DNA from: a virus
IMG/VR virus record: IMGVR_UViG_3300045919_000635
Span: 3,186 to 67,185 of that record
Direction: 5' to 3' (one strand)
Length of the DNA stretch: 64,000 bases
Shown here piece after piece: positions 30,665 through 59,027 of the stretch. The notes under the pieces are model-generated. The model searched no databases. It was given only the letters and a program-made list of their open reading frames with translations, and had not been told where the DNA came from. Position 1 is the first letter of the stretch; the number at the start of each line of letters is the position of its first letter. The translations under genes and the position numbers were made by a program.

Positions 30665-32522
30665 TTTCGGTTGTTATTGCTCCTGGATTTAATTGAGAAA
30701 TAATATCGGCTAATGCTAGTGGTTCTGAGTTGGCGGGTTCGTAAACTGGTCTTCCGTAAGATATCTCCTTATTTAAAGTCAACATTGCTTGCTCAACTAA
30801 TGCAGGCAATCCCAGAGAAACCCCCCACGGTGCCTTGGGATTCTTGGGGTCGGGTATCTGCATAAACTGGGAGAAAAGTTGCATTAATATTTGTAAACCT
30901 GCTGCCGCATTTTGAACAACGCGAGGAGAGAAACCAGACATGGCATTCTTGATTTCTTGGTCGGTCATGTTTGGATACTGTTTCCTCAGTACCCACTCTT
31001 GACTTAACCCGTCCTCTCTCTCGTTTCTGGCGCTTATACTTAGGTCAAGCTGTTCCCGCGTCGTATTATTAAACACTTCACGAGTAAAACGCCAAATTAC
31101 AGTGCGATCGCCACCCGGTACAATTCCGATATTCGTATCAGGCAGCGGTAATTTACGTTCTTTCTTCATCTGCCACAATGCCTGAGAGATATCGTCAGTC
31201 AACTGGTCGAGAGAAGTTAAAGCCGCAAATTCACGGGCATAATTAGTTTTTAAAGTAGCGAACAACCAGGATTTAAATATCCTTTCTTCCCTTTCTAATA
31301 TCCGCTCAAAAACTTTAGCGAGTCCCGTATGCCCATACAAAGCCTCAGCTTTTTTATCTGCGGTATTTTGCACCCTCCCAAAAAGCGTTTTCACCTCCCC
31401 AAAAGTGGCACCGGCGGAAATGCCCGAAAGTGGATCTACTCCTCCTAATATCCAGTGAATTAATTCCCGAAGTTGTCGTATCCACAAGTTTTGGTCGCCA
31501 GAAACTGGATCAGCTTGAATAAAAGCAAACCGTTCCCCATCCCCCACATTGCCAAAAATTGTATCTAAACTCCCTTCGGAAGTGTTCGCTTGCCACATTC
31601 CCTGTGGCGATCGCTGCATTCCCCAGCTAGGCACATCAACTGGATTAGTCGAACCAGAGTAATTTCCCCCTCCTAAATCAACATAACGATTAGCACTTGC
31701 CCAAGTATTACTCCACCCCGATGCTTGCTGCATTACTTCGTTAGCACTGCGGGTAGTAATGAGGATGGGGTTACTGAACATCCGCAAATTCTTGTGTGCC
31801 TTTTCTACCAAGACCTCGTGTGTCTCAATCAATCCTTGGTGCAAGTAAAAATCATCGCTGCCTTGTTGCCCCAGTTGCCGGGAATTATTCTTGCTTAAAA
31901 CAATTGGCAGATGTGGCTTGAAAGGATTCTCATATTTCTGCGATCGCTCCATCCAAGCAAATTCGCTGTCTCCTTGGGGGCTATATGTAGCAAAACTCCC
32001 CCCATTAAATGATGCATCGAATTGTGGCTTAATTAACGATTCTGACTGATTTATCCAATCAGCCGTAATAATAATCTTTACCCACCGTTGCTGTTTAATC
32101 AGCGTTCCCGGTGTTTCGTTTTCGTAAGAATATCTAACAAATACTTTTTCAATTTCTCGCCCACCCAACTTGTAATAAATCTTAAATTGGGGGTCTGGGT
32201 GATTCAGTCCACCCGTGAAAAATTCAATTTGGTACATTCCCAAGTTTTCATTGTCTGGCGTGAAATACCATAGAACTTCACCCCGACTAACGAAGGAATC
32301 CATAATAAAGTCAAGTCTATGTTGTAAAGAATTGTGTTGCCAAAGCCTAGTAAAAAGCTTCATCCTTGCCCCGCTCTCATCCTGAAGGGGGCGCATTTCT
32401 ACATTTCCGCCTCTTACCCCCCATTCCCGCATTTGAGCGCAATGCAAAGCTACTACAGTACTCTGGCTGCCTGAAGTGCCATCGCGATCTAAAATTGCTT
32501 TGATTTGGGTTTCTAAAGCCAA
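30327..32522 (-). CDS. Portal protein
   Basis: Size and first position in the head operon. Motifs GEVLWYF, P+VLSKN...GSDDF, LGGVD..GISAGATFGEVKTLFGRV..TA.KK...LY..GL. Confidence 0.75.
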   Translation of the reverse strand: MALETQIKAILDRDGTSGSQSTVVALHCAQMREWGVRGGNVEMRPLQDESGARMKLFTRLWQHNSLQHRLDFIMDSFVSRGEVLWYFTPDNENLGMYQIEFFTGGLNHPDPQFKIYYKLGGREIEKVFVRYSYENETPGTLIKQQRWVKIIITADWINQSESLIKPQFDASFNGGSFATYSPQGDSEFAWMERSQKYENPFKPHLPIVLSKNNSRQLGQQGSDDFYLHQGLIETHEVLVEKAHKNLRMFSNPILITTRSANEVMQQASGWSNTWASANRYVDLGGGNYSGSTNPVDVPSWGMQRSPQGMWQANTSEGSLDTIFGNVGDGERFAFIQADPVSGDQNLWIRQLRELIHWILGGVDPLSGISAGATFGEVKTLFGRVQNTADKKAEALYGHTGLAKVFERILEREERIFKSWLFATLKTNYAREFAALTSLDQLTDDISQALWQMKKERKLPLPDTNIGIVPGGDRTVIWRFTREVFNNTTREQLDLSISARNEREDGLSQEWVLRKQYPNMTDQEIKNAMSGFSPRVVQNAAAGLQILMQLFSQFMQIPDPKNPKAPWGVSLGLPALVEQAMLTLNKEISYGRPVYEPANSEPLALADIISQLNPGAITTENEQLISRNIPTSPVLTSMGLPSSIFDAAAGRFYRSGYENPELRGGIAGEGGSKGATATGGGGYPLSVFGGELRTSNGANDSRTGTAVGSVGDIDPSLLALYADQLRSLLRDR

Positions 32523-40021: not shown

Positions 40022-40918
40022 ATGAGCGGCGCTTATTCAACAACTACCACTGGTAGTGCTTCCATTACTATTTATTCAACGCCTGGAACTTACGTTTTAA
40101 CACTACCTACAAACTATACCTTTGTTCGGATTTTTCTTTGTGGCGCTGGAGGCAGTGGGGCGAGCGGAAGAAGGGGTGCTGCTGCTTCTACTAGATATGG
40201 TGGCGGTGGCGGTGGCGGTGCTGGAAGTTCTGAAGCTACTTTTTTGATTGCAGATATTTTAGCTGTTAGCACACAAATAACAATTACTGTGGGTGCGGGT
40301 GGCGCGATCGCACCTTCACCTACAACAGATGATACCAACGGAGTTACTGGAACCAATGGAGGCATCACACAAGTAATAAGAACTGCGGATTCAGCTCAGA
40401 TGCTATCAGCAGCAGGCGGTAATGCTGGGGCAGGTGGTACTGCTAGTACTAGTTCTGGTGGTACTGCTGGAAGTTCCCCAGCTTTATTTCCAGGAGGAGG
40501 CGGCACTAGCAGCAGCCCTAGTGCGGCATCTGCTGCGGGAACTGGTGCTACTTTAGGCGCAGGTGGTGGTAGTGGCGGCGGTGGCGTTGATAGCTCTAAT
40601 GTTGCCCGTAGTGGAGGTAACGGCGGTATAGGTGCAAGAGTCAAATTTGGCACAAGCATCACAATTACTGTTGCCGCAGGCGCAGCTTCTAGTAGCACTA
40701 CTGGCGGAACGGGTGCATCCGATACAGCAGATACTTACTTTTCTTATCCCGGCAATGGTGGAGGTGGTGGAGGTGGTAGCAGCGTTGCTGGCGGCGGTAA
40801 CGGAGGCAACGGAAATAAAGGTGGTGGCGGTGGCGGTGGTGGTGCTTGTCCAAATGGCTTCTCCCCTGGCATTGGTGGAAAAGGTGGGGATGGATATGCA
40901 ATTTTATACTTTTATTAA
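40022..40918 (+). CDS. Glycine-rich tail fibre-associated protein
   Basis: GAGGSG..G..GGGGGG..., ITVGAGG and GGKGGDG..I glycine-rich domain pattern. Confidence 0.75.
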   Translation: MSGAYSTTTTGSASITIYSTPGTYVLTLPTNYTFVRIFLCGAGGSGASGRRGAAASTRYGGGGGGGAGSSEATFLIADILAVSTQITITVGAGGAIAPSPTTDDTNGVTGTNGGITQVIRTADSAQMLSAAGGNAGAGGTASTSSGGTAGSSPALFPGGGGTSSSPSAASAAGTGATLGAGGGSGGGGVDSSNVARSGGNGGIGARVKFGTSITITVAAGAASSSTTGGTGASDTADTYFSYPGNGGGGGGGSSVAGGGNGGNGNKGGGGGGGGACPNGFSPGIGGKGGDGYAILYFY

Positions 40919-45882: not shown

Positions 45883-46201
45883 CTTCTACCACAAAATTAT
45901 CAATTTCTGAGCAAAATTGTAAGCCAAAAATCCTCACGCCTTCGGGGACGAAAGCCATGATTGCCAGCGCTTTAACCAAGACGAATAATCCGTGATTAAA
46001 CGTTTTTTCGTCACGCGGATAAAACAGATATTTATCCGCGTGGTTAATTACATGCAGTGGGTAATCCGCATCTTCCTCCTCGCATCGCAACCAGCGCCAC
46101 TCTTCCTCGATTAAACCACGGGACTTGATGTGGCTAATAAATCGGGGGACGTTGTGGTGTAGGAGCGATCGCACTTGATTCAACCGTTGTTCTGACCTCA
46201 T
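45863..46201 (-). CDS. Hypothetical protein
   Basis: 112 aa, coupled to both neighbours. Confidence 0.6.
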   Translation of the reverse strand: MRSEQRLNQVRSLLHHNVPRFISHIKSRGLIEEEWRWLRCEEEDADYPLHVINHADKYLFYPRDEKTFNHGLFVLVKALAIMAFVPEGVRIFGLQFCSEIDNFVVEDGSEKT

Positions 46202-46641
46202 GGCTTTCTAACACTCCACCATTTGCCCTGCCTATCAAATATAAACCCACGCATCGCAAATGGCGATCGCGGCAACCTCTTCAACTTAACCAACTCTTTT
46301 AACTCATGCGATCGCAATAACCACCCGCGATCGCAACAACGTTCCAGATCCTCAAGGTGTGTAAGCCTTGATTCAGATGACAACTTTTTTACTTCATCTA
46401 ATAAGTAAGTCATCATCTGCAATAATATTTCTTCTTTCTGAGATTGCTTCTCAGTCTCCTCGTTCACCACGATTGACCGATGTACGGGTGTCGATTGTTC
46501 GCGCTTCAACCATTCAACTTCCGATTGGTCAAATATAGCTTCGCGGTTAATATACACAATTTTCAGCTTTCCTTGCTTCACGTACCGATTAACGGTTCTA
46601 GGTGTGCAACCCAGGTAATCAGCAACCTCATTCTTATCCAC
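46198..46641 (-). CDS. Excisionase-like (HTH_17) DNA-binding protein
   Basis: MDKNEVADYLGCTPRTVNRYVKQGKL...FDQSEVEWLK. Confidence 0.8.
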   Translation of the reverse strand: MDKNEVADYLGCTPRTVNRYVKQGKLKIVYINREAIFDQSEVEWLKREQSTPVHRSIVVNEETEKQSQKEEILLQMMTYLLDEVKKLSSESRLTHLEDLERCCDRGWLLRSHELKELVKLKRLPRSPFAMRGFIFDRQGKWWSVRKP

Positions 46642-46756: not shown

Positions 46757-47662
46757 ATGTCCGTAATATTATACGAAATCGCGACGCAAAAAAGGACTTA
46801 CTTGGATGACAATGCGATCGCACTAGATAAAGATTTCGCACTTCAGCTACAGCAGCGACTCTGCGACTTCCACCTCCTCTCTAACCCCGATGGGAGGTGG
46901 GGTGAAAAGTCAGCCGCAGCCCTAGCCAAATTTAAATCTTTCCGAGGATTGAAGGAGGCTGGATGCGGTAACTTGACGGCATCACAACTGATAAATATCA
47001 CACCATCAGGCTTAATTAACGGATACAAACTTGATGGCAGTCTAGCTAGTCGTGCCTTGATGTTTTTTATCGACCGAGGCTTTAAAATCGCCACAAACAA
47101 GAGCGAATGTAACATTTTCTATTTAGAGGGCGTAAACCGCGACGGTTCCCTAAACGACAATAACCGGTTTGTTTATAATGACCGCCGCTGCATTCTCCAA
47201 TTCGATAATAATAACGGACTCCTTACGCCCAAATTAACAGGGAACTGGTTAGCGACATGTGACCCCGGACAATACTACTGGGACAACCCACTCAATGAGA
47301 ACGGGTGCGCGAACATCAAGAAAAACACCCAATATAAGGCTTGGACAACCGGGAAACATCATGACCAATATGCTTTAGTTCAGGCAGCGGATATTACAGT
47401 TTTGCGCGGAGAGAAACAAACTGCTTTTGATGGTGATGACTTTGGAGTAAACCAACACTCTGTAGGGAAGGGGCAGGATTTCTCCTTTGGGGAGGCGATC
47501 GGTAAGTGGAGTGCTGGCTGTTGTGTGGGTGCGAACCGCGCAGAACATGAGAGCTTCATGCGACAAGTTGACGCAGACCCACGAGAGAAAGCGAATAAAG
47601 GCAATTATTTGCACTACACAGCATTTATTAAAGGGGTTAGTTTGGAGGCGACGTTCCCATAA
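46757..47662 (+). CDS. Putative endolysin: peptidoglycan-binding domain plus YkuD-like Cys catalytic domain
   Basis: LQQRL......DGRWGEKSAAALAKFK PG-binding motif. C-terminal GVNQH...WSAGC.V. Confidence 0.75.
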   Translation: MSVILYEIATQKRTYLDDNAIALDKDFALQLQQRLCDFHLLSNPDGRWGEKSAAALAKFKSFRGLKEAGCGNLTASQLINITPSGLINGYKLDGSLASRALMFFIDRGFKIATNKSECNIFYLEGVNRDGSLNDNNRFVYNDRRCILQFDNNNGLLTPKLTGNWLATCDPGQYYWDNPLNENGCANIKKNTQYKAWTTGKHHDQYALVQAADITVLRGEKQTAFDGDDFGVNQHSVGKGQDFSFGEAIGKWSAGCCVGANRAEHESFMRQVDADPREKANKGNYLHYTAFIKGVSLEATFP

Positions 47663-47928
47663 TGTGTAAAGCCCGTAGCTTGTTCCAAACCAAAACCTTT
47701 CAGAGTAGCGCGATCGCACTTCTAGGCGGACTTGCCCCGATTGCGATCGCATGTAGCTACCAACACAGATTGCCTACACAAAACGAAGCGATCGCAACAG
47801 CTGCCCTAATGAGTGTTTTTTCATCTGCTCTTGTAGGGCGTGTCGAAACCTCGCCCGTATTTACACCCGATGGGTTCCCCGGTCCCAATGAAAGTGACAT
47901 CAAAGAATCATCAATTAACTCTAATTAA
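47662..47928 (+). CDS. Putative holin
   Basis: KSLFQTKTF-like start, two hydrophobic segments, VFTPDGFPGPN end. Directly after the lysin. Confidence 0.55.
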   Translation: MCKARSLFQTKTFQSSAIALLGGLAPIAIACSYQHRLPTQNEAIATAALMSVFSSALVGRVETSPVFTPDGFPGPNESDIKESSINSN

Positions 47929-48298
47929 AGGGGGAGAAAAGATAGCCGCGATCGCACTACAAGGCAACTATATAATCGGCAGATCGAAATTTAGATGCTC
48001 TGAACTTGCGATCGCATTTGATGAATCCCCTACCCTGATTATTTTCAATGGGGCTAAGTGCCTTTCGGCGATGCATTGTGTGCTTTATCAAGATTCAATC
48101 GGGTATCAACTAATTGATGGTTGGGGGCTGAAGTACAGCACAAATGGCGTATTCTGCAACGGGCATAAAGTTGATAATACCGCCATAAAACATGGCGATG
48201 AGATTACCCTTGGTTCTGATGAAATAAGCTTACTATATGAATCCGAGCAAGATGCACAAACTGAGGAAGAGACTTTTTCTAATTTTAAAAAAGTATGA
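47840..48298 (+). CDS. FHA domain protein
   Basis: IIGRS...LSAMHC.L......LID....STNGVFCNG......IKHGDEI.LG. Confidence 0.85.
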   Translation: MSKPRPYLHPMGSPVPMKVTSKNHQLTLIKGGEKIAAIALQGNYIIGRSKFRCSELAIAFDESPTLIIFNGAKCLSAMHCVLYQDSIGYQLIDGWGLKYSTNGVFCNGHKVDNTAIKHGDEITLGSDEISLLYESEQDAQTEEETFSNFKKV

Positions 48299-48740
48299 AA
48301 AAAACTTAATTCGGCTGATTCTAACCTTGGTGTTTTCTGCTGTAATCATGTGGCTAGCAAAGCACATTTTTGATATTTACTTACCTTTTGCAACTTGGAA
48401 AGCATCATTAGAATCAGTAGGTATTATATCTGTCTTATTCTCAATCTTTACCTTTTGGATTACCCAACAAACCGAAAAACGTCAATCATCAGCTGTCGCG
48501 ATCGCTCGTAAAGAAGAGAAGGATAAAGCAATTATTGAGAGTCACGCGATCGCCATTGTGCGACTAGAATCAGTGGAAGAAACCTTGAGGAGTGCGATCA
48601 ATTCCAATACTAAAGCCATTGAGGAGGTGCGATCGCACTTGGGGAGACTATCAGCGCAAGTACAGCAAACAGAAGCTGAAGCTATTATGCAGAGGAAAAT
48701 AGCGAGGCTTGAAGATAAAGTAGAAAGTTTAATGGCTTGA
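48237..48740 (+). CDS. Membrane-anchored coiled-coil protein (holin/spanin-like)
   Basis: Two TM-like helices followed by a coiled coil, in the lysis cassette. Confidence 0.55.
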   Translation: MNPSKMHKLRKRLFLILKKYEKNLIRLILTLVFSAVIMWLAKHIFDIYLPFATWKASLESVGIISVLFSIFTFWITQQTEKRQSSAVAIARKEEKDKAIIESHAIAIVRLESVEETLRSAINSNTKAIEEVRSHLGRLSAQVQQTEAEAIMQRKIARLEDKVESLMA

Positions 48741-48892
48741 CGGAAGGAGGAAGAGCTTCTAAGAGGGAAGAAGGATGAAAATATTTCTTTTCAACCTTCT
48801 TCCTACTTCCTCCTTCCCCCCGAACTTCAGCTTGACGAATTGATTTTTTAAAGCTAGGGTAAAAACAATTGATTAAGTTTTTGTTCACAAAG

Positions 48893-48928
48893 AAAGCGCT
48901 TTTTGTTTAACGTCAAAAGGCGCTTTTT
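48893..48928. terminator. Probable bidirectional intrinsic terminator
   Basis: aaagcgcttttTG..CAaaaggcgcttttt hairpin between convergent operons. Confidence 0.6.
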
Positions 48929-48970
48929 ATTGACAATTTTAGATGTCGTGGTTAAGCTTAAAGCAACATT

Positions 48971-49243
48971 TTATTTATTCTCCACGCCTTCAATCCCAGG
49001 ACTTGAAGGCGTTTTGTTTAGCTGCTCATCAGAATGTGATTGCTCGTAGAATGCGATGTCTGACGACAAGGCGTGTGCGGACAACGCGATCTCGATGCCT
49101 TCCGTTATGCTGCCATTTCCTAACTTTTTAGCTATCTCCCTGGCAGACAAAGAAAGCTGCACAAGTGTTTTTTTTGAATTGGGCTTTTTATTTTTCCCAG
49201 CAATTAAATTGCGCTGAGAGTTGGGATTTTCACCTTTAGGCAT
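48971..49243 (-). CDS. Small putative DNA-binding protein
   Basis: MPKGENPNSQRNL...VQLS.SAREIAKKLGNGSITEGIE, RHH-like. Confidence 0.55.
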   Translation of the reverse strand: MPKGENPNSQRNLIAGKNKKPNSKKTLVQLSLSAREIAKKLGNGSITEGIEIALSAHALSSDIAFYEQSHSDEQLNKTPSSPGIEGVENK

Positions 49244-49447
49244 TTAATTGTACTGTGCTTGCATTGGCTGATTAAAAGAGAGCTTTTCGAGCTTACCATC
49301 AAAATCATTAATGGCTTTTTTGAGTGAGGGAGAATCTAGTGCGAACATCCCGGCGCACTCAATACGAGGGGTGAATTCAGCATTTCCACCCCACCCGCCA
49401 ACCCAATAGCCGCGATTGGGAACATAGCAAAATCCGTAAGTTCTCAT
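49244..49447 (-). CDS. Small hypothetical protein
   Basis: AAAGGA RBS, 67 aa. Confidence 0.55.
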   Translation of the reverse strand: MRTYGFCYVPNRGYWVGGWGGNAEFTPRIECAGMFALDSPSLKKAINDFDGKLEKLSFNQPMQAQYN

Positions 49448-49473
49448 TTTTCCTTTCTTTTTCCTTTAAAAAT

Positions 49474-49902
49474 TTAGTGGACGTAACCCTGCCTCGTGCC
49501 ATCCCAAGAAGAAAGCGAATCGTAAGATCCTGGAATTGTTTTTTCTAACTCGAAGTGTTGATTTACTTCGTCCTCCGAATAAGATCCACCTTGCCATACG
49601 TGATAAATATTTACTTCAGGCATAAAAGGCGCTGCTTGATTTTCAATTTTTACCCAAACTTCTATTGGGGAAATACCAGATAATGCGGATAAAGCATTTT
49701 TCAGTTGAGAGTAAGGCTTGTTGTAGCCACTTTTTTTTGGAGGATTTTCCATTTTAATTACCTTCTTGCTAACAAATCGAGGGCGAAAACCAGTGACACG
49801 TACCCACAACACGCTTGCCCATTCCCGAACTTCTGTGACTAGCTCTTGCGCTACATTTAAAAATTCGCTTACTGGTCTTTGTGCTGCTGTTGTGATGTCC
49901 AT
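49474..49902 (-). CDS. Hypothetical protein
   Basis: Strong AAAGGAG RBS and its own promoter. Confidence 0.65.
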   Translation of the reverse strand: MDITTAAQRPVSEFLNVAQELVTEVREWASVLWVRVTGFRPRFVSKKVIKMENPPKKSGYNKPYSQLKNALSALSGISPIEVWVKIENQAAPFMPEVNIYHVWQGGSYSEDEVNQHFELEKTIPGSYDSLSSWDGTRQGYVH

Positions 49903-49928
49903 TGGTTTCTCCTTTCTGGTATATATCT

Positions 49929-49957
49929 ACTATATATTTAGCAGAAAGAAGTGTCAA
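49929..49957 (-). promoter_or_regulatory. Sigma70-type promoter
   Basis: TTGACA-17 nt-TATAGT on the minus strand. Confidence 0.75.
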
Positions 49958-50091
49958 GGGATTTTAGGAAAGTTTTTCGTTTTAGCGATCGCGTGACTAC
50001 AGCTATATGCGATCGCATACCCGCCCTCATGCGTGCGATCGCATTAAAAAACGCCCCTATATTTATAGGAGCGCATGAACTTTTTTGTAAA

Positions 50092-50640
50092 TTACCGCCA
50101 AACAAAATAAGTCTTTTTCACGTCATCATCGGACTCCTCAACGAACTCCTCCTGCCAGAATTCGATGGGGTAGTAGGCGATAAAATCGTGAAATTGATAT
50201 TGAGTAACCAACCCTGGATAACTGGGGCTTTCTTTCTCCTCAGTATCAATCCCGCCAGGGCGAATGGGAGTGAGTGCGATCGCTTCACTACTCATCCCTA
50301 ATTCTTCCTTCAGAGCACGTTCCGCTGCATCTTCCGGATTTTCGTTGGGGAGGAATTTTTCGGCTAATCCTTCAATTCTACGTTTACGGATGCGCCCATC
50401 CGCGAAAACTTGGCGATCTTCGTAAAGGCTTAATTCATTATCCAGGGAGATAACTTTCACTCGACACACCTTGATTAGGCGGATAGGCTTATCGCCCTCC
50501 CAAACAATCTCAGATTCGCCTTTCTCTATTTCTTTAACTAAGGATGCAAAATCTTTCGCTCGCCTTTTTCCGTATAATTCCAAGGGAAGATATTCTTGAA
50601 GCCTAGAAGTTTGAGCTATTTGCATAATTTTATCAACCAA
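50092..50640 (-). CDS. NUDIX hydrolase
   Basis: EKFLPNENPEDAAERALKEELG Nudix box and ESPSYPGL motif. Confidence 0.8.
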   Translation of the reverse strand: MVDKIMQIAQTSRLQEYLPLELYGKRRAKDFASLVKEIEKGESEIVWEGDKPIRLIKVCRVKVISLDNELSLYEDRQVFADGRIRKRRIEGLAEKFLPNENPEDAAERALKEELGMSSEAIALTPIRPGGIDTEEKESPSYPGLVTQYQFHDFIAYYPIEFWQEEFVEESDDDVKKTYFVWR

Positions 50641-50741
50641 CTCTTCATCTGAATTTGAATTCAGGATTTGTAGTAGCTTAAAAGGCAGATAAACGGTTCT
50701 GCCTTGCCCCGTGGAAGGACGACCACGCCCACGGGACTTGA

Positions 50742-51065
50742 TTAAGCTACTACTTCCGTTTTTGGGATTTCAATGATATCCCCTACTCTCACGCCAGGGA
50801 AATGGGATTGAACAACGACCGCGCCTAAGCGGGGATCTAAATGTGCTACCCACACCGCGATATGGCAGTGATGCGCGATCGCACTATGCAACCAAATTGC
50901 TCCACGGTGGGAGATAATGACACCCTTTTTGAAATCTATAGCTAAGGCATCGACAGCGGCGATCGCGCTTATAATCGCGCTGGTATCGTAGCTAGCTTCA
51001 GTGGATAAAATTTCAATTACTTGAAATTGCTCATTTGACTGAGCGATATTTGCTGTAATGGTCAT
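50742..51065 (-). CDS. csx3: Csx3/Crn3 family ring nuclease
   Basis: KGVIISHRGAIWLH...AHHCH..WVAHLDPRLGAVVVQSH..G..VGDII matches the Csx3 signature (GV++SGRGPIWL..H..H...+DPRLGAVVV.SH). Confidence 0.9.
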   Translation of the reverse strand: MTITANIAQSNEQFQVIEILSTEASYDTSAIISAIAAVDALAIDFKKGVIISHRGAIWLHSAIAHHCHIAVWVAHLDPRLGAVVVQSHFPGVRVGDIIEIPKTEVVA

Positions 51066-51150
51066 TTGTTTTAAAGGGATATGTGACTATTTTCCCAGGC
51101 GATCGCTACCCATTCGATGAGTGGCATCACGCTTTATGCGATCGCGCTAA

Positions 51151-51933
51151 TTATTTATTCCAAAACCCGTCGGATTCCATTGATGTTTGGGTACTGCCAC
51201 CTCCCGCTGAGGGAACACGAACTCTGTAGGATTGCCCATTTTTAAGCTTTGCCATTTCCGCTTCACATATCCGGATTTGGCTCATTTCTTCCCCCTCGAA
51301 AACTTTTATCCCATCATCATTTACGACGATTCGATAAGCCTTTCTATAGTGATTGGAGAAGAAACAATCTGGATCTCCCAGAAACATCCCTCGACAAAAT
51401 CCAGACTCGACCTTAAAGACTTTTGAACTTCGCCAAAAAGCTTCAAAACGATAATCGGACTTCCGAATACCCTCCTGAATCTTCACAACTTCCTCAATTT
51501 CTATGTTGAGATATGAGCCTATTTTTTGAGCCTCAGCCAAGGCTTGAACTTCAGATACGCGCTTGAATTCTAGCTTGTCCGGGAATGATAGCAATTCAGA
51601 CTTTTGCTTTATCCTCAAAACAGCTTTAGCCACTGAAAACGAACAACCATACTTACCTTTTAATGTTTTGGTTCCCGATGCTGGCATATCTTCTAATCTC
51701 AAGCCTAATGCGCTCGCATCGCTTGCATTAGCAATCTTGGTGGGTAAATCGGAGATTGCTTCCTCTGGCGTTCCAAGCCAGAAAATTTCATACGCCTCCC
51801 AGCCTTCTACTTCCAGTACTGGGGCATTATTTTTTAATTCTTTATTCAGCTTTTCAATTTTTCTAACTGCCTCTTCCCACTCAGCAATAAGCTGCTTTTC
51901 GTTTTGGAACTCAACGGTTTTGATTAATTTCAC
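51151..51933 (-). CDS. Hypothetical protein (first gene of the csx3 operon)
   Basis: 260-aa ORF downstream of a strong promoter. Confidence 0.6.
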   Translation of the reverse strand: MKLIKTVEFQNEKQLIAEWEEAVRKIEKLNKELKNNAPVLEVEGWEAYEIFWLGTPEEAISDLPTKIANASDASALGLRLEDMPASGTKTLKGKYGCSFSVAKAVLRIKQKSELLSFPDKLEFKRVSEVQALAEAQKIGSYLNIEIEEVVKIQEGIRKSDYRFEAFWRSSKVFKVESGFCRGMFLGDPDCFFSNHYRKAYRIVVNDDGIKVFEGEEMSQIRICEAEMAKLKNGQSYRVRVPSAGGGSTQTSMESDGFWNK

Positions 51934-52008
51934 TTACGACGCGATGCCCTCTTTTCATCGCTCCTAGCAAGGCTTTCTAGTTTGCCTCGGGTGATTGTTT
52001 TGCCTTGT

Positions 52009-52060
52009 GAATTTATCTTAGATTAATTCATTTGGATTGTCAAGGAATTTATCTTAGATT
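52009..52060 (-). promoter_or_regulatory. Sigma70 promoter bracketed by 16-bp direct-repeat operator
   Basis: TTGACA(52043)-17-TAAGAT. gaatttatcttagatt occurs at 52009 and 52045. Confidence 0.7.
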
Positions 52061-52068
52061 GAGCAACA

Positions 52069-52258
52069 GAAGGCATGACGGTAGGATAAATCCTACCGTC
52101 AGCCTTCATCCCCGGTCTGAAGCACAGAATGCGGAACTACGTTCCTGTTCTTCCGGGGTTTTCGCCATCCATCTTATAAACCTGGGATTTCTTATCTGCA
52201 TGAGCAAGTTATGTCTTAGATTCAAGAATCCCCGTCTCTTTAGAGCGGGGAGTGTCAA
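52069..52258 (+). mobile_element. IS200/IS605-family right-end remnant / possible orphan reRNA
   Basis: caagaatccccgtctctttagagcggggagtgtcaa is a typical TnpB-element right end ending in TCAA. Upstream hairpin gaagg..gacggtagga..tcctaccgtc..ccttc. Confidence 0.7.
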
Positions 52259-52397
52259 CCGCTTCGATTTCGGATTCCGTGTACTGAACGGGAGGGTTGA
52301 ATTGGATACTTGGGTCGTGCTTGTCAATGCGATCGTCGCAAGACGTGCCGGAGGTATCGCTGTTATGTGAGAAGAGTGCGATCGCTGTTTGGTTGCG

Positions 52398-53801
52398 TCA
52401 TGTTTTAAATCTAATAGCTGCGTGAGTGCGATTAATTTCAATTAGTTCCATTGCAGCCAGTTGCTCTACAAAGCTTGTAATTTCTGCTGCTGTATTCTTG
52501 CCTTTAAGCACTGCGTAATCTTTGCGACTAATATCACGGACGGCTAACCATTCCCCTTTAGCTTCTTTAGTTGCCTTCCAAATAGTTCGCAATGGTTCGG
52601 GTAATGCATCTGCCGCAGTCAGTTCACATATAGTCGGAATGGGTGTTAGTGTTGCAGTCGTTAAAACTTTATTTGGTGCAATTTGAGGAACTTTATTTTC
52701 AGATTCTCTAATTTTTTTCCCTTTATACTCCAGCAAGTTGGGCAATAATCCCGCCTTCGGTTTCCCACTGGTGCTAATTATTATTGGTACTTTATTCTGT
52801 GTTGAAAGCTTGATATACTTAGCTACATCGATGACAAACTTTTCACGCATCGCACCATCGGGAAAGATGTAGGGGTTTCTGACAATTGACTGGATAACTT
52901 CAAAACCTCCTTGCTCATTGCCATCTTCATCAAGACTAATCAATCCTTGGCTGATAATATTCAAGTTGTTTCTGATGTTAGAATCTTCTGCCAGTCCCAA
53001 AGAAGCAATATTGTAAGTTTGGCTATCAACAAATAACGATACATTAAACTCACGGGCAACCGTTACAATATCCGCAAGTTTAGTTTGCACTTGGGACTCC
53101 CAAAGTTTCTTATGGGATTTCGTCAAACTGTTGTGGGTGCTGTACCAATCAGCAATTATCAACCGAACTGGTAAACTTTTTAGTTTGTCACGCTCTATAC
53201 CCTCTGGTAATTGCGATCGATCAAGAAATATTTCATAAACTTTTTGAAGTGCTTCAAGTGCGGTAGCTGGGTCGGATGAATCATACACCCACACTTTACC
53301 TTTTTCACTTAACCCATTGAAGCTATCGTTTTTACGGGCAATCACATACACATCAGCACTTGGGTAGTTTTCAAACAACTTAGTCAGCCAGTATGACTGA
53401 GTGACTGACTTACCCGCACCACTGGGAGCTGCGAGCAAAGTGCTAAGTTTGGTGTGAACCAATTCGTCAATAATCCGTTGACCAGTTTCAGTGTGTGGTG
53501 AAACGTTGGTAGTTATAGATTGAGCATTGGGCGCTAGTCTTATGTCACTGTCATGTGATTGAGCAGTCGCGTACTCTACGTGCGCTGGTTCTAGAACGGT
53601 TGGTATATATGAATCAGGTTGATTCACCAAATTGGATTTTATATTTTTTTCTTGTAACCCTTGCGGTTTTTCAACTCCAAACTTAGCGATCGCCAATCCA
53701 ACAATAGCCCCCAAAATAATAGAAACTTCCCACCCCGTTGGTATGGGTTGAGAAGTTTTAGGCTTTTGAGTTGCGAGTAATAAGCACAAAAGTAGATTCA
53801 T
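52398..53801 (-). CDS. FtsK/HerA-superfamily membrane-anchored ATPase (TraB/TcpA-like)
   Basis: N-terminal TM, Walker A LLAAPSGAGKS, Walker B RLIIADW, AREFNVSLFVDSQ arginine-finger/Q motif, C-terminal wHTH. Confidence 0.75.
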   Translation of the reverse strand: MNLLLCLLLATQKPKTSQPIPTGWEVSIILGAIVGLAIAKFGVEKPQGLQEKNIKSNLVNQPDSYIPTVLEPAHVEYATAQSHDSDIRLAPNAQSITTNVSPHTETGQRIIDELVHTKLSTLLAAPSGAGKSVTQSYWLTKLFENYPSADVYVIARKNDSFNGLSEKGKVWVYDSSDPATALEALQKVYEIFLDRSQLPEGIERDKLKSLPVRLIIADWYSTHNSLTKSHKKLWESQVQTKLADIVTVAREFNVSLFVDSQTYNIASLGLAEDSNIRNNLNIISQGLISLDEDGNEQGGFEVIQSIVRNPYIFPDGAMREKFVIDVAKYIKLSTQNKVPIIISTSGKPKAGLLPNLLEYKGKKIRESENKVPQIAPNKVLTTATLTPIPTICELTAADALPEPLRTIWKATKEAKGEWLAVRDISRKDYAVLKGKNTAAEITSFVEQLAAMELIEINRTHAAIRFKT

Positions 53802-54064
53802 TTTGAGCGAAACTTACATTGCATTCCAAACACTGCATCATTAGCAAAATTAGTCATACCAACCATTGTGTTGCGAATTGGGGTAGGAACTAAAGAATTT
53901 ACAACTACTCCCCAAAGTAACGGGCTAACAATTAACCACAGTAAAAAAATAACTCCTATTTCTCTGAGTCCAACTTTAAATTTAGAGCGTTCTTCTTTTA
54001 ACTTCAACTCTAAACTTTCAACTTTATCCAGTAAATCAACTTGCTGCCAGTGGTGTGTCTGCAT
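53798..54064 (-). CDS. Small membrane protein
   Basis: IGVIFLLWLIVSPLLWGVVV TM segment, coupled to the ATPase gene. Confidence 0.65.
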   Translation of the reverse strand: MQTHHWQQVDLLDKVESLELKLKEERSKFKVGLREIGVIFLLWLIVSPLLWGVVVNSLVPTPIRNTMVGMTNFANDAVFGMQCKFRSK

Positions 54065-54269
54065 TGGGTTTCCACTTTATTAATGCATTGTCAACTTTGA
54101 AATAAGTCCCAACCAGTAAGGCTGAGACTAATGACAGAAATACAAAAAAAGAAAATATCTTACTTACGACGCTCATCTTTTGCTTGGTCTATTCTAATTA
54201 GCATAATCAAACCGTAGATAATAGCTATTCCAACTATTACCAGTACTCCACTTAATGAGGGAATCATCA

Positions 54270-54791
54270 TCAAACTTTCCTCGCGTCTTGAACTTCTGCG
54301 TGATTAAAAATGTTGGCACATCCAAAAGCTATTTCACTGCCCAACACAAATACAGTGGCAAGTATTTGTATAAACTGTGGCAATCCCGCTGTATTACCTT
54401 TTGCTCCCATCTGAGCAAGGTTTACATTGTAATCAAACCAAAATACATATCCAGCCACCAAACAAAACGCAATGACCCCGGCAATGCTTGCTGCTGCACT
54501 AAAGTTTTTTAGTAGCGGGTCATGACTACCAAGTAAAGCTCTTGGTCTTTCCATTGTTTGCAGTAAAGCATTTGGGTCAAACATTACTGTCATCGCCGCC
54601 GCCTCAATGCCTAGTATCAAAACTACAGCGCTAGAGCTACCAAATATTTGCTGAATCCAATTGCCTCCTGATAATACTTTGTAAAAGTAAGGCGTTAAAG
54701 TTACAGCATTGTAACCAAGAATTAACCAGCCAGATGCTTTCATGATGTTACCAAGCTGGCTATTAGTCTTTTTGTCCCTTGTAAATAACAT
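54270..54791 (-). CDS. Multi-pass membrane protein
   Basis: About four hydrophobic helices. Confidence 0.7.
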   Translation of the reverse strand: MLFTRDKKTNSQLGNIMKASGWLILGYNAVTLTPYFYKVLSGGNWIQQIFGSSSAVVLILGIEAAAMTVMFDPNALLQTMERPRALLGSHDPLLKNFSAAASIAGVIAFCLVAGYVFWFDYNVNLAQMGAKGNTAGLPQFIQILATVFVLGSEIAFGCANIFNHAEVQDARKV

Positions 54792-55287
54792 TATTTAATT
54801 GCTAGTAATCGTACTGCGACTGTTGAGGAATGGCTACACGTCTAAAATTTCATTGAGATTGTACACTGAGTTTTCTGGTTGTTCTTCTACAACTTCAATC
54901 TCTAGCTCTACACTTGCTAATTCTGGCGGTAATCCTTCCACTTCACAGTTCATTATTTTCTAACCAAACCATTCTTTGTGAAACTTGAACATCAGTGACA
55001 GGGAAGGGTTCGTTACCGCCACTAATAACAACCTTCATCTTTTTGTTTTTGACTTCTGCCAACTTATCGATTAATTCTTGGACTGTCATAGTTTTTATTT
55101 TTGATTGGGTAAACATTCAAACTTCTTGCCGTGCCAGTATATCCGAGGTTGATTAATTCCTTCAAAGTATATTTTGTATTGAGGTGGGTCTGTCTTTAAC
55201 TCAATAATGTCACGCACACACAAAATACCTTTTCCTTCTCCTTCGGAGACGCTAGCGCGAACAGGGTCTATAATATTCAACCCTAGA

Positions 55288-55500
55288 TTAATGTCTTGAA
55301 CTAATATTTCCATCACAACTCCTTGTATTTGAAATGTTGTAAGTAATTGTGAGTGCTGATAAAGCAATTGCGATCGCACTCAATCCAATTACTAGTTGAA
55401 AAATCTGCGGGAACTTCTGCTCTACCTTTTTGTAGTAGCGTTTCTGAGTTCCATCGGGGTAATATTCAGCCTCAACTATGTGAGGCTGCTCTTGGTTCAT
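55288..55500 (-). CDS. Small membrane protein
   Basis: IFQLVIGLSAIAIALSAL TM segment. Confidence 0.55.
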   Translation of the reverse strand: MNQEQPHIVEAEYYPDGTQKRYYKKVEQKFPQIFQLVIGLSAIAIALSALTITYNISNTRSCDGNISSRH

Positions 55501-55505
55501 ACAAC

Positions 55506-55724
55506 TTAATACCCAGGCGAATACCTTACGTAATCATTTTCATCAACAGTTATCACTATTTTTTGCTGCTCTATTAATCCTAGAACTAATAAATCAAATT
55601 CTGAAGAAGAAATATCCCCTTCAAAGCAAGCTAAACACCTAATCAATGGGGCTATTTTCCCAGGACATTCATTAACTATTTTGATAATTAGGCTTTCCTT
55701 GTCGTTCACTTTCTCGTAACCCAT
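55506..55724 (-). CDS. Small wHTH-like protein
   Basis: 72 aa within the operon. Confidence 0.5.
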   Translation of the reverse strand: MGYEKVNDKESLIIKIVNECPGKIAPLIRCLACFEGDISSSEFDLLVLGLIEQQKIVITVDENDYVRYSPGY

Positions 55725-55867
55725 GAATGCAAACCAATTGTTGCAACCAACGCCGCGATCGCACCACCAGCAGCGGGAATAAATGCAGCCAATAAAAACG
55801 CTGCGCCTCCAAATCCACCAACTACACTAGTAAGCCCTAATACTCCCGTAGCTCCTTTAATAACCAT
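55706..55867 (-). CDS. Small glycine-zipper membrane peptide
   Basis: AAAGGAG RBS then MVIKGATGVLGLTSVVGGFGGAAFLLAAF... Confidence 0.6.
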   Translation of the reverse strand: MVIKGATGVLGLTSVVGGFGGAAFLLAAFIPAAGGAIAALVATIGLHSWVTRK

Positions 55868-55914
55868 TTCTCCTTTCCCTCTAGTTTTTTGTTTCTCCAA
55901 AATTGAAACGATCA

Positions 55915-56304
55915 TCAGCCACCTGATTCGACAGTAGATGGCATTTCGGATGGCAGTAGTGCGTACTTTGGGCTGTCCTGCCATGTCTCCAGGACATGAC
56001 ACTCTAGAGCTAAAGGGGCGTTTAATCCAGCAAACAACCCATCAAGCATCTCTGCTGATAAATCGCCAAAGTCCCCGTTTTCAAAATCTTGCACAACATC
56101 AGCGATCGCACCAGCCACAAGCTGAGTTTTGATGTTCTCTTTCAGCTGCCGACGACCTTCTGTCAGTTTCCCTTGTAGGGTGTTGCCTGCCGTCTGTGCT
56201 GACTCTGTAGCCCGTCCATTACCCTGCTTGCGTTGTCGGGTGTCGGGTTGTCGGTTATTTGGTTGCCCGACATTATCATCTTCTACTGCTTTCTTGAATG
56301 ACAT
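55915..56304 (-). CDS. Hypothetical protein
   Basis: GGAGG RBS, 129 aa. Confidence 0.65.
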   Translation of the reverse strand: MSFKKAVEDDNVGQPNNRQPDTRQRKQGNGRATESAQTAGNTLQGKLTEGRRQLKENIKTQLVAGAIADVVQDFENGDFGDLSAEMLDGLFAGLNAPLALECHVLETWQDSPKYALLPSEMPSTVESGG

Positions 56305-56620
56305 AAAAATCCTCCATGTGTTGTTTTATTCGAGCCGTCGCACCTACATACTGATACTTCTCTAGAAGTTGCTTGAATTGATACAAAGCTTCAAGGGTTC
56401 CCCTACTTAAGTATTGGTTGTATGGCTTGTAATCAAATCCTTTTGGTTGAGCTTTTTGTAAACAAGTCAAGTATCTCCAACAAGTAGTTGGACTAATTTC
56501 AAGCTCCTTTTCTGCTTTTTTTCTGGATAATTCAGTTTCAGCACTAAAGTGCAATGGTTCTGTTTTGGTATGAGTGAATTCTGAAGTAAACATGAATGAG
56601 ATGTGAATGCGTTCAGACAT
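56276..56620 (-). CDS. HTH DNA-binding protein
   Basis: LSRKKAEKELEISPTTCWRY HTH. Confidence 0.6.
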   Translation of the reverse strand: MSERIHISFMFTSEFTHTKTEPLHFSAETELSRKKAEKELEISPTTCWRYLTCLQKAQPKGFDYKPYNQYLSRGTLEALYQFKQLLEKYQYVGATARIKQHMEDFYVIQESSRR

Positions 56621-56697
56621 CGTTCATACTTTGATAATAAAAAACTTGCACAGTGGCGGGTAGTCATATTTGTCGCAAAAGTGTCGCAAAAGTGAAA

Positions 56698-56904
56698 TCA
56701 AAAGTCAAAAAAAATTCCGTAACTTTTGCCCGATTTTTCCCACTTAGTATTAACTTCGCTTAAAATCCACCGAGCATATCGGGGGGTTTTTTGCTGCCAT
56801 CGCTGAATCGTTCTTATGTCGCGCTCAAAAAATGCTGCCAGCAAATTAAATATTTCGCAGTCCTGTGATAGACCCCATCTGGCTAAGAATTCAAGTAAGC
56901 TCAT
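56698..56904 (-). CDS. Cro-like HTH protein
   Basis: MSLLEFLARWGLS...LAAFFERDIRTIQRW. AGGAG RBS before ATG 56904. Confidence 0.65.
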   Translation of the reverse strand: MSLLEFLARWGLSQDCEIFNLLAAFFERDIRTIQRWQQKTPRYARWILSEVNTKWEKSGKSYGIFFDF

Positions 56905-57063
56905 AGTTGCTCCTGCTACAGGTTGTGCTGTGGTTGGGGAAGTCCGACGGTGAAGGTTCAGAGCTTCACCGTCGGGCATCTTTATTTAATTTAATATAAA
57001 ACCAGCCGACATAAACCAACGGGTGATAATATATAACTAAGAATATACTACATTTTAAGTCGA

Positions 57064-57728: not shown

Positions 57729-59027
57729 ATGTCTAATTTTGTATTCGTGCTTGACACCAACTTTCAACCATTAAACCCAGTTCCACCGGGACAAGCTAGG
57801 CGATTACTGAAAGCAAAGCAAGCTGCTGTCTATCGTCGTTACCCATTCACAATCATCCTAAAATACGCGGTTCCAAGTCCTGATACAGAACCACACCAAT
57901 TAAAAATAGATCCAGGCTCTAAGACTACTGGATTAGCAATTGTGCAGGGCGAGAAAGTTATCTGGGGTGCAGAATTGACCCACCGTGGGCAACAAATCAA
58001 AAACGATTTAGAGTCACGCCGCGTTATTCGTCGCAGTCGTCGTAACCGCAAAACCCGTTACCGGAAACCAAGATTTCTAAACCGCACTCGCCAAAAAGAT
58101 TGGTTAGCACCAAGCCTTAATTCCAGAGTTGAAAACATCCTAACTTGGGTCAATCGGATAACTCGATATGTGCCGATTACTGGCATATCTCAAGAGTTGG
58201 TTAAATTCGATCTGGCTGCAATGCAGAATCCTGAAATCTCAGGCAAGGAATACCAGCAAGGAGAATTAGCCGGCTACGAAGTCAGGGAGTATTTACTTGA
58301 AAAATGGGGCAGAAAGTGCGCTTATTGCGGTGTTGAAAACGTCCCATTTGAAGTTGAACATATTCGCCCGAAATCAAAGGGAGGAAGTGACAGAATTTCA
58401 AATCTCACGCTTGCTTGTCATGATTGCAATCAAGCAAAAGGGAGTAGAGATGTTAAAGATTTCTTAGCCAAAAAGCCCGATATTTTATCCCGTATCTTGA
58501 GGCAAGCTAAACTTCCACTCAAAGATGCAGCAGCGGTTAATTCAACCCGGTGGGCATTGTTTGAAAGACTAAAACAGACAGGGTATCCAGTAGAAACCGG
58601 GACGGGTGGCAAGACAAAATACAACCGTGTCCGGCTTAACTTACCTAAAGCGCATTGGTTAGATGCTGCCTGCGTAGGGAATGTAGAAAGCCTACAAATT
58701 GTTACCTCTACACCCTTGCTGATTGCTGCTAAGGGGTGGGGGAATCGCCAAATGTGTACAACCAATAAATACGGCTTCCCGATTCGTCATAGAACACGCT
58801 GCAAGACTTTCTTTGGTTTCCAAACTGGTGATATGGCACGGGCAATTCTCCCCACTGGGAAGTTCGCAGGTGTTCATGTTGGCAGATTAACCGTCCGCGA
58901 AAGTGGTGTATTTGAAATGCGTACATTGATTGGTAAAGTTAGTCCGGTACGCCATAAGTACTGCGAATCTATCCATCGTAACGATGGGTACATGTATGCA
59001 TTCCCTACTGACTCAGTGACTATTTGA
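57729..59027 (+). CDS. iscB: IscB RNA-guided endonuclease (RRXRR/HNH), apparently intact
   Basis: PLNP N-terminus, RuvC-I IDPGSKTTG, RRSRRNRKTRYR bridge helix, RuvC-II QELVKFD, HNH EHIRPKSKGGS..NLTLAC..CN, RuvC-III HWLDAAC. Confidence 0.95.
   Translation: MSNFVFVLDTNFQPLNPVPPGQARRLLKAKQAAVYRRYPFTIILKYAVPSPDTEPHQLKIDPGSKTTGLAIVQGEKVIWGAELTHRGQQIKNDLESRRVIRRSRRNRKTRYRKPRFLNRTRQKDWLAPSLNSRVENILTWVNRITRYVPITGISQELVKFDLAAMQNPEISGKEYQQGELAGYEVREYLLEKWGRKCAYCGVENVPFEVEHIRPKSKGGSDRISNLTLACHDCNQAKGSRDVKDFLAKKPDILSRILRQAKLPLKDAAAVNSTRWALFERLKQTGYPVETGTGGKTKYNRVRLNLPKAHWLDAACVGNVESLQIVTSTPLLIAAKGWGNRQMCTTNKYGFPIRHRTRCKTFFGFQTGDMARAILPTGKFAGVHVGRLTVRESGVFEMRTLIGKVSPVRHKYCESIHRNDGYMYAFPTDSVTI

Follow-up and report, generated by a model that had tools for sequence, protein, structure and literature searches.

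The sequence considered here, called the window below, is a stretch of 64,000 nucleotides covering bases 3186-67185 of a 67,185-bp virus record in IMG/VR (IMGVR_UViG_3300045919_000635). The record is classed as linear and is 46% complete according to CheckV. Between about 54.8 kb and 49.0 kb of the window every gene lies on the minus strand, and in this series we find a small cassette of three genes: an orphan open reading frame (ORF) of 260 amino acids (aa), then csx3, the gene of main concern, and then a divergent gene of the NUDIX fold (NUDIX-like gene below). A preliminary description of this DNA, made from its letters, had placed a phage-encoded Csx3/Crn3 ring nuclease at 50742..51065 on the minus strand, a placement that agrees with the program-made ORF list. 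It had also stated that Csx3/Crn3 degrades cyclic tetra-adenylate (cA4), the second messenger of type III CRISPR immunity, which published work confirms (PMC7371418). In the direction of transcription, the features of the cassette are as follows.

52043..52015, minus strand: promoter-like site TTGACA-17-TAAGAT, 10 of 12 matches (-35 box consensus, -10 box 4 of 6)
51151..51933, minus strand: orphan ORF of 260 aa, first gene of the cassette, from the ORF list
50742..51065, minus strand: csx3 (crn3), ATG start, 107 aa, stand-alone ring-nuclease homologue
50682..50737, minus strand: pair of neighbouring stable RNA hairpins immediately past the csx3 stop, in the spacer of about 100 nt before the NUDIX-like gene
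50092..50640, minus strand: divergent NUDIX-fold gene, 182 aa when read from TTG, or 177 aa, the length of the database form, when read from the ATG at 50625
50051..50074, minus strand: terminator-like hairpin and U-run closing the cassette (10-pair stem with 5 GC pairs, then TTTTTT)

Identity of the csx3 product

On profiles, predicted fold and catalytic residues, the ORF unambiguously reads as a full-length Crn3/Csx3. A profile search, named by the preliminary description as a check on its assignment, gave scores far above the curated cut-offs: 69.4 bits for Pfam PF09620 (Cas_csx3; gathering cut-off 21, E 2.3e-19) and 76.4 bits for the NCBIfam equivalog TIGR02579 ('CRISPR-associated ring nuclease Crn3/Csx3'; cut-off 55.4). 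Five PADLOC Csx3 models match as well, with E-values from 1.5e-21 to 3.6e-17. Cas_csx3 is the sole Pfam family found in the protein, which therefore has no match to DUF1874. Searching the PDB with phmmer yields five distinct sequences of A. fulgidus Csx3 (AfCsx3; E 4.3e-16 to 7.7e-15), aligned over approximately residues 36-105 of the window protein. In this alignment H65, H68, D77, R79 and H88 of the window protein correspond to H57, H60, D69, R71 and H80 of AfCsx3, and D77 and R79 belong to the DPRLG string (D77-P-R79-L-G). The Csx3 signature with its histidines and DPRLG, noticed initially from the letters, is thus seen in Pfam, NCBIfam, PADLOC and the AfCsx3 alignment alike. In AfCsx3 the substitutions H60A and D69A abolish cA4 cleavage, while R71A and H80A strongly reduce it (PMC7371418). 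Equivalents of all five residues occur without exception in the clade of 12 proteins that the window protein forms with its 11 closest relatives, and the window enzyme appears catalytically intact.

The predicted structure points in the same direction. An AlphaFold2 model based on a 71-sequence alignment has a mean predicted local distance difference test score (pLDDT) of 95.1 and a predicted template modelling score (pTM) of 0.87. Superposed on 6YUD, the structure of AfCsx3 with cA4, it reaches a template modelling score (TM) of 0.80 at a root-mean-square deviation of 1.5-1.7 A over 99-100 columns. Among the matches listed by Foldseek against the PDB, AfCsx3 chains make up 11 of the 12 top-ranked (TM 0.74-0.80, normalised to the query), and STAS proteins rank far below them. 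The next-best PDB family is Cat1, in the form of cA4-bound filaments (9mud, TM 0.69, E 0.024). Hence the model agrees with the STAS-like alpha/beta fold of Csx3, which differs from the Rossmann fold that CARF domains have. Its structural neighbours in the Atlas are Crn3 clusters (TM 0.83), and the BFVD fold library returned no match.

Close relatives are few. A word-indexed search found 11 proteins of 101-108 aa with 60-73% identity to the window Csx3, all of them from metagenome or run assemblies. In an exhaustive profile search of 1.84 billion representatives, the Csx3 family amounts to 355 proteins at E<=1e-3; the clade of the window protein appears there as a single representative (one 50%-identity cluster) with 172 bits, while no other exceeds 90 bits. 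In a quick tree, built over 112 columns from 180 Csx3 domains, this clade groups with three representatives (Shimodaira-Hasegawa-like approximate likelihood ratio test, SH-aLRT, 99), apart from every IMG/VR sequence. As 97 of its 175 inner branches are unresolved, we draw from it neither a donor nor a direction of transfer. This tree, a phylogeny having been proposed as a check, is poorly supported as a whole, and the suggested history, a host off-switch co-opted by a phage, stays a conjecture. Scans with clade-specific peptides gave one chance-like 16-residue match each in IMG/VR (L002) and in GTDB (L003, a Rhodoferax scaffold), and both were rejected. A peptide scan of metagenomes returned four loci: two short contigs (L004, L005), a locus with AAA/VWA genes next to it (L006) and a spurious match (L007); the tree puts L004-L006 outside the window clade, and all three were discarded as members.

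Phage setting, and Csx3 in other viral contigs

The gene lies among phage genes. Scans with Pfam and PHROGs covered 61 ORFs of the window and recognised the following features; a portal-like gene is also present in the record, and the PHROGs matches include HNH endonucleases.

14135-17395, plus strand: terminase large subunit, 1086 aa (PHROGs), intein-interrupted according to Pfam
26589-27974: major head protein (PHROGs)
30327-32522: virion structural protein, 731 aa (PHROGs, E 1e-98)
40022-40918: tail proteins (PHROGs)
46198-46641: excisionase-like helix-turn-helix gene (Pfam/PHROGs)
46757-47662: endolysin-like protein (PHROGs)

The terminase, head, virion, tail and endolysin-like genes bear out that csx3 is phage-encoded. 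Equally, the absence of cas genes or an array nearby, stated from the letters at the outset, holds over a wider range. Pfam detects no Cas family except Cas_csx3 among the 61 ORFs, a family search of the whole 67,185-bp record gives a single Csx3 match, and neither Tandem Repeats Finder (9 rows) nor a direct-repeat search at array spacing (3 two-copy families) finds anything array-like. Linkage to a CRISPR locus, the usual contextual feature of Csx3, is hence lacking here. As a protein the window Csx3 is an ordinary member of Crn3, and this context is the only feature in which it departs from the family.

The HIP1 octamer GCGATCGC occurs 179 times in the record against 0.5 copies expected from base composition, which amounts to 2.7 per kb; the copies are spread over the record, and composition is even across the csx3 region. 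The Atlas clusters nearest to the window Csx3 are mostly from Cyanobacteriota. From this taxonomy and the HIP1 density we infer that the host is a cyanobacterium. A single sequencing run, of DNA, contains the stretch and is possibly the source of the assembly; no RNA run is listed as containing it.

Upstream of the cassette lies a gene for a 467-aa P-loop protein (ATPase), with which we found one related IMG/VR record, G001, a phage genome of 75,718 bp with direct terminal repeats and 100% completeness. It shares approximately 11 genes with the window record at 30-64% identity, including the terminase, capsid and portal-like protein, and carries 41 copies of HIP1 per 75.7 kb. A short syntenic block ends in the ATPase, which is 64% identical in both. 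Directly after it, the genes of G001 switch strand and are unrelated to those of the window, and no Csx3 match exists anywhere in G001, even at E<=1. Judged by this comparison, the location of the cassette fits a variable accessory slot.

Csx3 is also found in other viruses. We scanned IMG/VR with one degenerate peptide pattern derived from the 71-sequence alignment, a pattern that does not fit the window's own clade, and obtained 16 loci encoding Csx3, of which 14 represent further records. Among the 156 ORFs of at least 110 aa at these new loci, 150 were scanned with Pfam (the six left out lie at locus ends), and no Cas family except Cas_csx3 was detected in them at any of the 14 loci. Neighbouring genes encode terminase, tape measure, primase, RecA-like protein, ribonucleotide reductase, single-stranded DNA-binding protein and RecT, as well as M15 peptidase, dUTPase and ThyX. 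Phage-borne Csx3 is thus recurrent and mostly solo. Among viral Csx3 proteins, 16 have distinct sequences, and 13 of these retain the residues H57/H60/D69/R71/H80; the other three are the degenerate L013, L039, where D is changed to E, and L040, where L takes the place of H60. Viral sequences occupy about nine places in the quick tree, and four of the 14 new loci, plus L011-L013, are rich in HIP1. An all-against-all comparison of the Csx3-bearing viral loci revealed no recurrent partner except the NUDIX-like family. In the Atlas, one cluster named Csx3 is commonest in Uroviricota, which indicates that such genes are present, undiscussed, in deposited viral records. Close DNA and protein searches of INPHARED (50,697 phage records, which may omit the window's own), tblastn included, gave no match. 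One of the new loci, L035 on a 272-kb viral contig, deserves separate mention: a Tad2-like (Thoeris anti-defence 2) domain at 1345-1953 on the plus strand lies 4 kb upstream of the solo Csx3 at 5836-6162, which suggests an anti-defence island.

Some other features of the window record are listed here for completeness.

7246-10314, plus strand: fusion of a C5-cytosine DNA methyltransferase (residues 18-338) and a Dam-type N6-adenine methyltransferase (358-495), 1022 aa
11719-12204, minus strand: ORF of 161 aa, matching only the last third of phrog_2214 (profile 291-428)
47840-48298, plus strand: protein with an FHA domain (PF00498, E 3e-10), encoded a short way downstream of the endolysin-like protein
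57729-59027, plus strand: full RRXRR-HNH endonuclease (phrog_2214 over its whole length, E 1.7e-155)
241-537 of the record (outside the window, at the very end), minus strand: open frame with a Zn-ribbon CxxC...CxxC tail

The double methyltransferase has about 500 further residues without an assigned family and is likely an anti-restriction orphan methylase. Since the 161-aa ORF matches only the last third of phrog_2214, it can be seen as a truncated second copy of the RRXRR-HNH endonuclease. FHA domains bind phosphothreonine and are uncommon in phages. The two halves of the terminase are separated by Hint/intein splicing domains together with a LAGLIDADG homing endonuclease. The frame at the end of the record resembles the C-terminal part of an IS605-type TnpB, and may represent a mobile element or host flank.

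The cassette and its NUDIX-fold gene

According to the preliminary description csx3 sits in an operon under a consensus sigma70 promoter. The site upstream of the orphan ORF is the best one near the cassette start and the second-best within 48500-56500, and its -35 box is indeed consensus; the -10 box, however, matches at only four of six positions, and such sites are no more numerous in the region than in shuffled sequence (see below). The 260-aa product of the first gene has no family in Pfam, NCBIfam, PHROGs or PADLOC at the thresholds used, finds itself alone among 973 candidates from a search of 5.8 billion proteins, and has no tblastn match in any comparison locus retrieved. After csx3, a stretch of 120 nt folds at -40.1 kcal/mol against -25.9 for shuffled versions (standard deviation 3.2, z -4.4, none of 200 as stable), and UUUUAA follows the second of its two hairpins. 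These hairpins may act as a partial terminator, or may stabilise the 3' end of a transcript that stops at csx3. They correspond to no Rfam family, and over 47000-57000 Rfam gives two matches, both far below gathering scores. The closing hairpin at 50074..50051 folds at -14.4 kcal/mol (z -3.1, again none of 200 shuffles as stable); beyond this terminator a TTGACA-17-TATAGT site (11 of 12 matches) lies upstream of the next gene.

The last gene of the cassette is less easily classified. Its PF00293 score of 21.1 bits is exactly at the cut-off, but its AlphaFold2 model is confident (pLDDT 92.2) and has 88 Foldseek matches in the PDB at E<=1e-3, in which all top positions are taken by Nudix hydrolases (ADP-ribose pyrophosphatases, NudC). 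The model thus agrees with a Nudix fold, although at a TM of only 0.35-0.45, which marks the protein as a divergent branch of that fold. In an alignment of 20 members the Nudix box has the variant form E-K-x4-E-x7-R-A-U-K-E-E-L-G, and a motif SPSYPGL is invariant. The canonical box reads GX5EX7REUXEEXGU. Of it, the family retains the R, both residues of EE and the last G; at the first G and at the Glu of 'RE', each of the 20 members has another residue. The family is phage-rich, its Atlas clusters being commonest in Uroviricota and Cyanobacteriota.

We found this NUDIX-like family in 17 IMG/VR loci and searched these with the Csx3 profile. At L011, one frame of 305 codons encodes the NUDIX-like domain (residues 24-196) followed by a Csx3 domain (PF09620, 82.6 bits over residues 223-300). 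The record to which it belongs, G004, is a complete phage of 107,653 bp with terminal repeats, and the Csx3 half keeps all five key residues and looks catalytically intact. L012 is a 99.9% identical copy from another record, in which a single-base gap splits the frame. At L013, the ORF directly upstream of the NUDIX-like gene (125 aa; 5958-6332, plus strand) is Csx3-like; it reaches 23.0 bits against the PF09620 cut-off of 21 and has lost H57, D69 and H80, and its product may be a non-cutting cA4 binder or sponge. Including the window, Csx3 stands beside or is fused to the NUDIX-like gene in four of 18 viral contigs with this family, in three architectures. The two also occur apart: a NUDIX-like gene lies within 6 kb at none of the 14 other viral loci that bear Csx3, and no Csx3 occurs within 8 kb at 13 of the 17 NUDIX-like loci. 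Likewise, the NUDIX-like domain is absent from the best 150 Csx3 representatives. Nor did the literature search, in the text accessible to it, find a paper linking Nudix and Csx3.

Being neighbours in some phages and fused in another, Csx3 and the NUDIX-like protein appear to share a pathway, whatever its nature, and the window csx3 may be part of a two-enzyme module. At another locus of the family, L020 on a 508-kb viral contig (coordinates 5893-6333, minus strand, and 7321-7929, plus strand), an AAA_33 kinase-like gene adjoins the NUDIX-like gene, and a protein with a cREC domain ('cyclic-phosphate processing receiver') is encoded nearby. These neighbours hint that the NUDIX-like family handles nucleotide-derived signals.

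Proposed function and comparison with known systems

We consider it fairly probable (roughly 0.6) that the window Csx3 is a phage-borne, Mn-dependent cA4 ring nuclease that serves as an anti-type III CRISPR protein. By homology with the Csx3 proteins of A. fulgidus and M. mazei, its dimers would stack head to tail and sandwich cA4. The active site would be composite, formed by the His face (H65, H68, H88) of one dimer and the Asp/Arg face (D77, R79) of the next, and with Mn2+ the cA4 ring would be cut to linear di-adenylates. The gene would be transcribed within the small accessory cassette of orphan ORF, csx3 and NUDIX-like gene. Made during infection of a cyanobacterium, the protein would remove the cA4 produced by the host's type III Cas10, thereby keeping Csx1-type RNases and other cA4-dependent effectors off and blunting immunity; the NUDIX-fold partner would probably remove a second nucleotide in the same conflict. 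In this scheme cA4 cleavage by the window protein, its timing, the immune effect and the role of the partner are predictions from sequence, and it is from an intact ring nuclease in a phage that we infer an anti-CRISPR.

Published work makes the scheme plausible in several respects. Stand-alone Csx3 proteins of about the window protein's size are proven ring nucleases, and in E. coli Crn3 of M. mazei, besides degrading cA4, gave some relief from the plasmid immunity that Csx1 mediates (PMC7371418). Type III systems are plentiful in cyanobacteria, as the preliminary description had assumed, and Csx1 of Synechocystis is activated by cA4 (PMC9676260). The naming of AcrIII-1 in that description as the best-characterised viral ring nuclease is likewise backed, this being the dominant one known (PMC12409355).

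Several observations weigh against an anti-CRISPR role. The protection by Crn3 in E. coli was partial, and slow in comparison with AcrIII-1 (PMC7371418, PMC8284326), so that Crn3 may be a weaker anti-CRISPR than the known viral ring nucleases. Deleting the csx3 homologue of Synechocystis left plasmid interference unchanged (PMC9676260). Csx3-type domains also occur as cA4 sensors fused to effectors, as in Cat1, the next-best structural match (TM 0.69), and in a caspase-Csx3 representative, and the NUDIX-Csx3 fusion can be read in the same manner. Both function and host are deduced here from sequence and a structural model. The 11 closest relatives are known by sequence alone, and their clade is not claimable as phage-specific. 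The record, linear and 46% complete, carries a TnpB-like fragment at its far end and could therefore be a prophage with some host DNA. As G001 is only distantly related, the absence of the cassette from it is no more than moderate evidence of (recent) gain. Finally, the region contains 16 promoter-like sites against 15.5 in shuffles (standard deviation 4.1), and the cassette promoter is for this reason a candidate only.

The fusion in G004 and the adjacency in the window and L013 also suit a different view, in which Csx3 is mainly a cA4 sensor whose stacking on cA4 controls or recruits the NUDIX-fold enzyme, as an 'eavesdropping' switch of the phage or a cA4-activated effector. This agrees with the match of the window model to the Cat1 filaments, the sensor of Cat1 being of the Csx3 family according to a 2026 preprint (10.64898/2026.10.26.761840). 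It agrees also with the finding that 46 of the best 150 Csx3 representatives are longer fusions, caspase-Csx3 among them, and with the loss of H57, D69 and H80 in L013, as expected of a binder that does not cut. In the window, however, the genes are separate, with about 100 nt and two strong hairpins between them, and the ring-nuclease residues are all intact both here and in the fusion, at a protein size for which stand-alone Csx3 is proven to cleave (PMC7371418). Moreover, each gene can apparently work alone, since the other is missing nearby at 14 of 14 Csx3 loci and 13 of 17 NUDIX-like loci, and the phage has no Cas10 of its own. We therefore judge a sensor function unlikely.

The remaining views concern whom, if anyone, the enzyme serves, and on what it acts. 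Expressed from a prophage, a ring nuclease could damp the type III response of the host (self-targeting, collateral toxicity) and so protect the lysogen or serve the host as a moron, instead of aiding lytic infection. The excisionase-like gene at 46198-46641 would suit this, as would the promoter-like site and terminator of the cassette, which morons also have; the role assumed for Crn3 in cells is a reset of the system once infection has passed (PMC7371418), and close relatives of the NUDIX-like protein are encoded on the 5.3-Mb chromosome of Crinalium epipsammum PCC 9333, possibly in prophages. Yet Pfam and PHROGs find no integrase family among the 61 ORFs, and no host flanks were recognised. 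Sequence cannot separate such a moron from the anti-CRISPR, because the enzyme activity is the same and only the timing differs; we hold it to be quite improbable. A direct action on RNA, as a Mn-dependent deadenylating exoribonuclease that trims 3' ends of host or phage RNA, recalls the first description of AfCsx3. The family was later re-assigned as cA4-specific ring nucleases (PMC7371418, PMC8284326), the context gives no hints of RNA processing and no structured Rfam family lies nearby, which leaves little room for this view. Hardly more credible is an inert passenger, that is, a recently captured host gene without a role in the phage, or host DNA mis-joined to a viral contig. The record is indeed a linear metagenome assembly of 46% completeness, and the one DNA run that contains the stretch is possibly its source. 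Against this, csx3 has phage genes on both sides, composition is even and HIP1 spread throughout, the ORF is intact with invariant catalytic residues, and Csx3 recurs in at least 14 other viral contigs.

Returning to an anti-CRISPR role of the ring nuclease, the NUDIX-fold partner permits a more far-reaching version, which we regard as doubtful. The two proteins would form a counter-signalling module of cyanophages, split in the window and joined in one polypeptide in the 107-kb phage, with Csx3 cutting cA4 and the Nudix enzyme removing a second nucleotide of the same immune pathway; cA4-driven stacking of Csx3 may in addition control the partner. A nucleotide-clearing partner is plausible, as in type III loci the CARF deaminase CAAD is accompanied by a Nudix hydrolase said to mitigate metabolic toxicity (PMC12993439) and as cA4-activated TIR effectors such as Cat1 degrade NAD+ (PMC12162218). 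Candidate substrates are inosine triphosphate (ITP) from CARF-deaminase effectors, ADP-ribose or NAD-derived products of TIR-type effectors (Cat1), and 5'-triphosphorylated linear oligoadenylates. If true, this would be the first viral anti-CRISPR to attack both the type III signal and an effector product.

Ring nucleases are the main known viral route against type III signalling, represented by AcrIII-1, a viral SAVED protein (subject of PMC12751052) and a few Csx16/Csx20. The repeated presence of intact Crn3 in uncultured phage contigs extends this arsenal to a third cellular ring-nuclease family and suggests that cA4 signalling matters in the conflict between cyanobacteria and their phages, a setting in which type III systems are abundant. 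That Csx3 is repeatedly a neighbour or fusion partner gives a handle on the function of a phage-rich NUDIX-fold family that is as yet uncharacterised, and possibly on a two-step counter-defence. A specialist would predict the Csx3 enzyme itself; the cyanophage setting and the Csx3-NUDIX fusion constitute the new, testable lead.

Among characterised proteins, the closest to the window Csx3 are AfCsx3 (AF_1864; PDB 3WZG, 3WZH, 3WZI, 6VJG, 6YUD) and Crn3 of M. mazei, which it resembles in family, fold and size (107 against about 110 aa). It keeps the H57/H60/D69/R71/H80 set of AfCsx3 and DPRLG, and by analogy Mn-dependent cleavage of cA4 by head-to-tail dimers would be expected (PMC7371418). Unlike AfCsx3, it is phage-encoded, in a 67-kb record without cas genes and outside any type III locus, has only 33-38% identity over the structural alignment, and belongs to a separate small clade.

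In its proposed role it is comparable to AcrIII-1/Crn2 (DUF1874), also a small viral enzyme that destroys cA4 (PMC7371418, PMC12409355) and, like the window Csx3, encoded by viruses outside CRISPR loci. The folds are unrelated, however, AcrIII-1 is metal-independent and the window protein is not DUF1874; it may thus work like AcrIII-1 without being a member of that family. The histories differ as well: for AcrIII-1 a viral origin with later adoption by cells is assumed (PMC12409355), whereas here a family known from cells appears in phages. A survey of 28,114 genomes of cultured phages from the Millard database with profiles for Crn1-3, Csx15, Csx16 and Csx20 found AcrIII-1 in 36 of them, Csx20 in four and Csx16 in two; in its accessible text the authors, who had named Crn3, report no Crn3, though the supplements may give more detail (PMC12409355). 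Similarly, our literature search, which did not extend to supplements, found in the accessible texts no paper that describes a phage-encoded Crn3 and none that joins Csx3 with a cyanophage. Csx16, Csx20 and the viral SAVED protein AcrIII-2 (named in PMC13148439) offer a parallel, being cellular-type families that degrade cyclic oligoadenylate (cOA) and occur in phage genomes, but these have CARF/SAVED folds and the window protein the Csx3 fold.

Type III systems contain Csx3 fusions such as Csx3-AAA of Synechocystis (Slr7080), Csx1-Crn3 and the TIR-sensor protein Cat1 (PMC8284326, PMC9676260). The phage fusion at L011 likewise joins a Csx3-type domain to a second enzymatic domain; in contrast to those proteins its partner is a NUDIX-fold domain, and in the window the two are separate genes. 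The representative library holds further arrangements. P0051 (547 aa) has a caspase (Peptidase_C14) domain fused to two Csx3 domains, P0112 combines Csx3 domains with a GTPase-like region, and many Csx3 proteins of 290-320 aa have no Pfam family in their second half.

Like the pairs of CAAD (Cad1) and Nudix (PMC12993439), finally, the phage genes show a Nudix hydrolase travelling with a component of the cOA pathway. There, a cellular effector is paired with a Nudix enzyme; here, a putative phage signal destroyer is paired with a divergent Nudix-fold protein, and the two are likened by description, not by sequence. Summarizing, the novelty consists in a predicted viral ring nuclease that belongs to a third cellular family and is linked to a NUDIX-fold partner; members of the partner's family form one polypeptide with Csx3 in a complete phage of 107 kb and, in a third contig, come after a degenerate Csx3-like gene.

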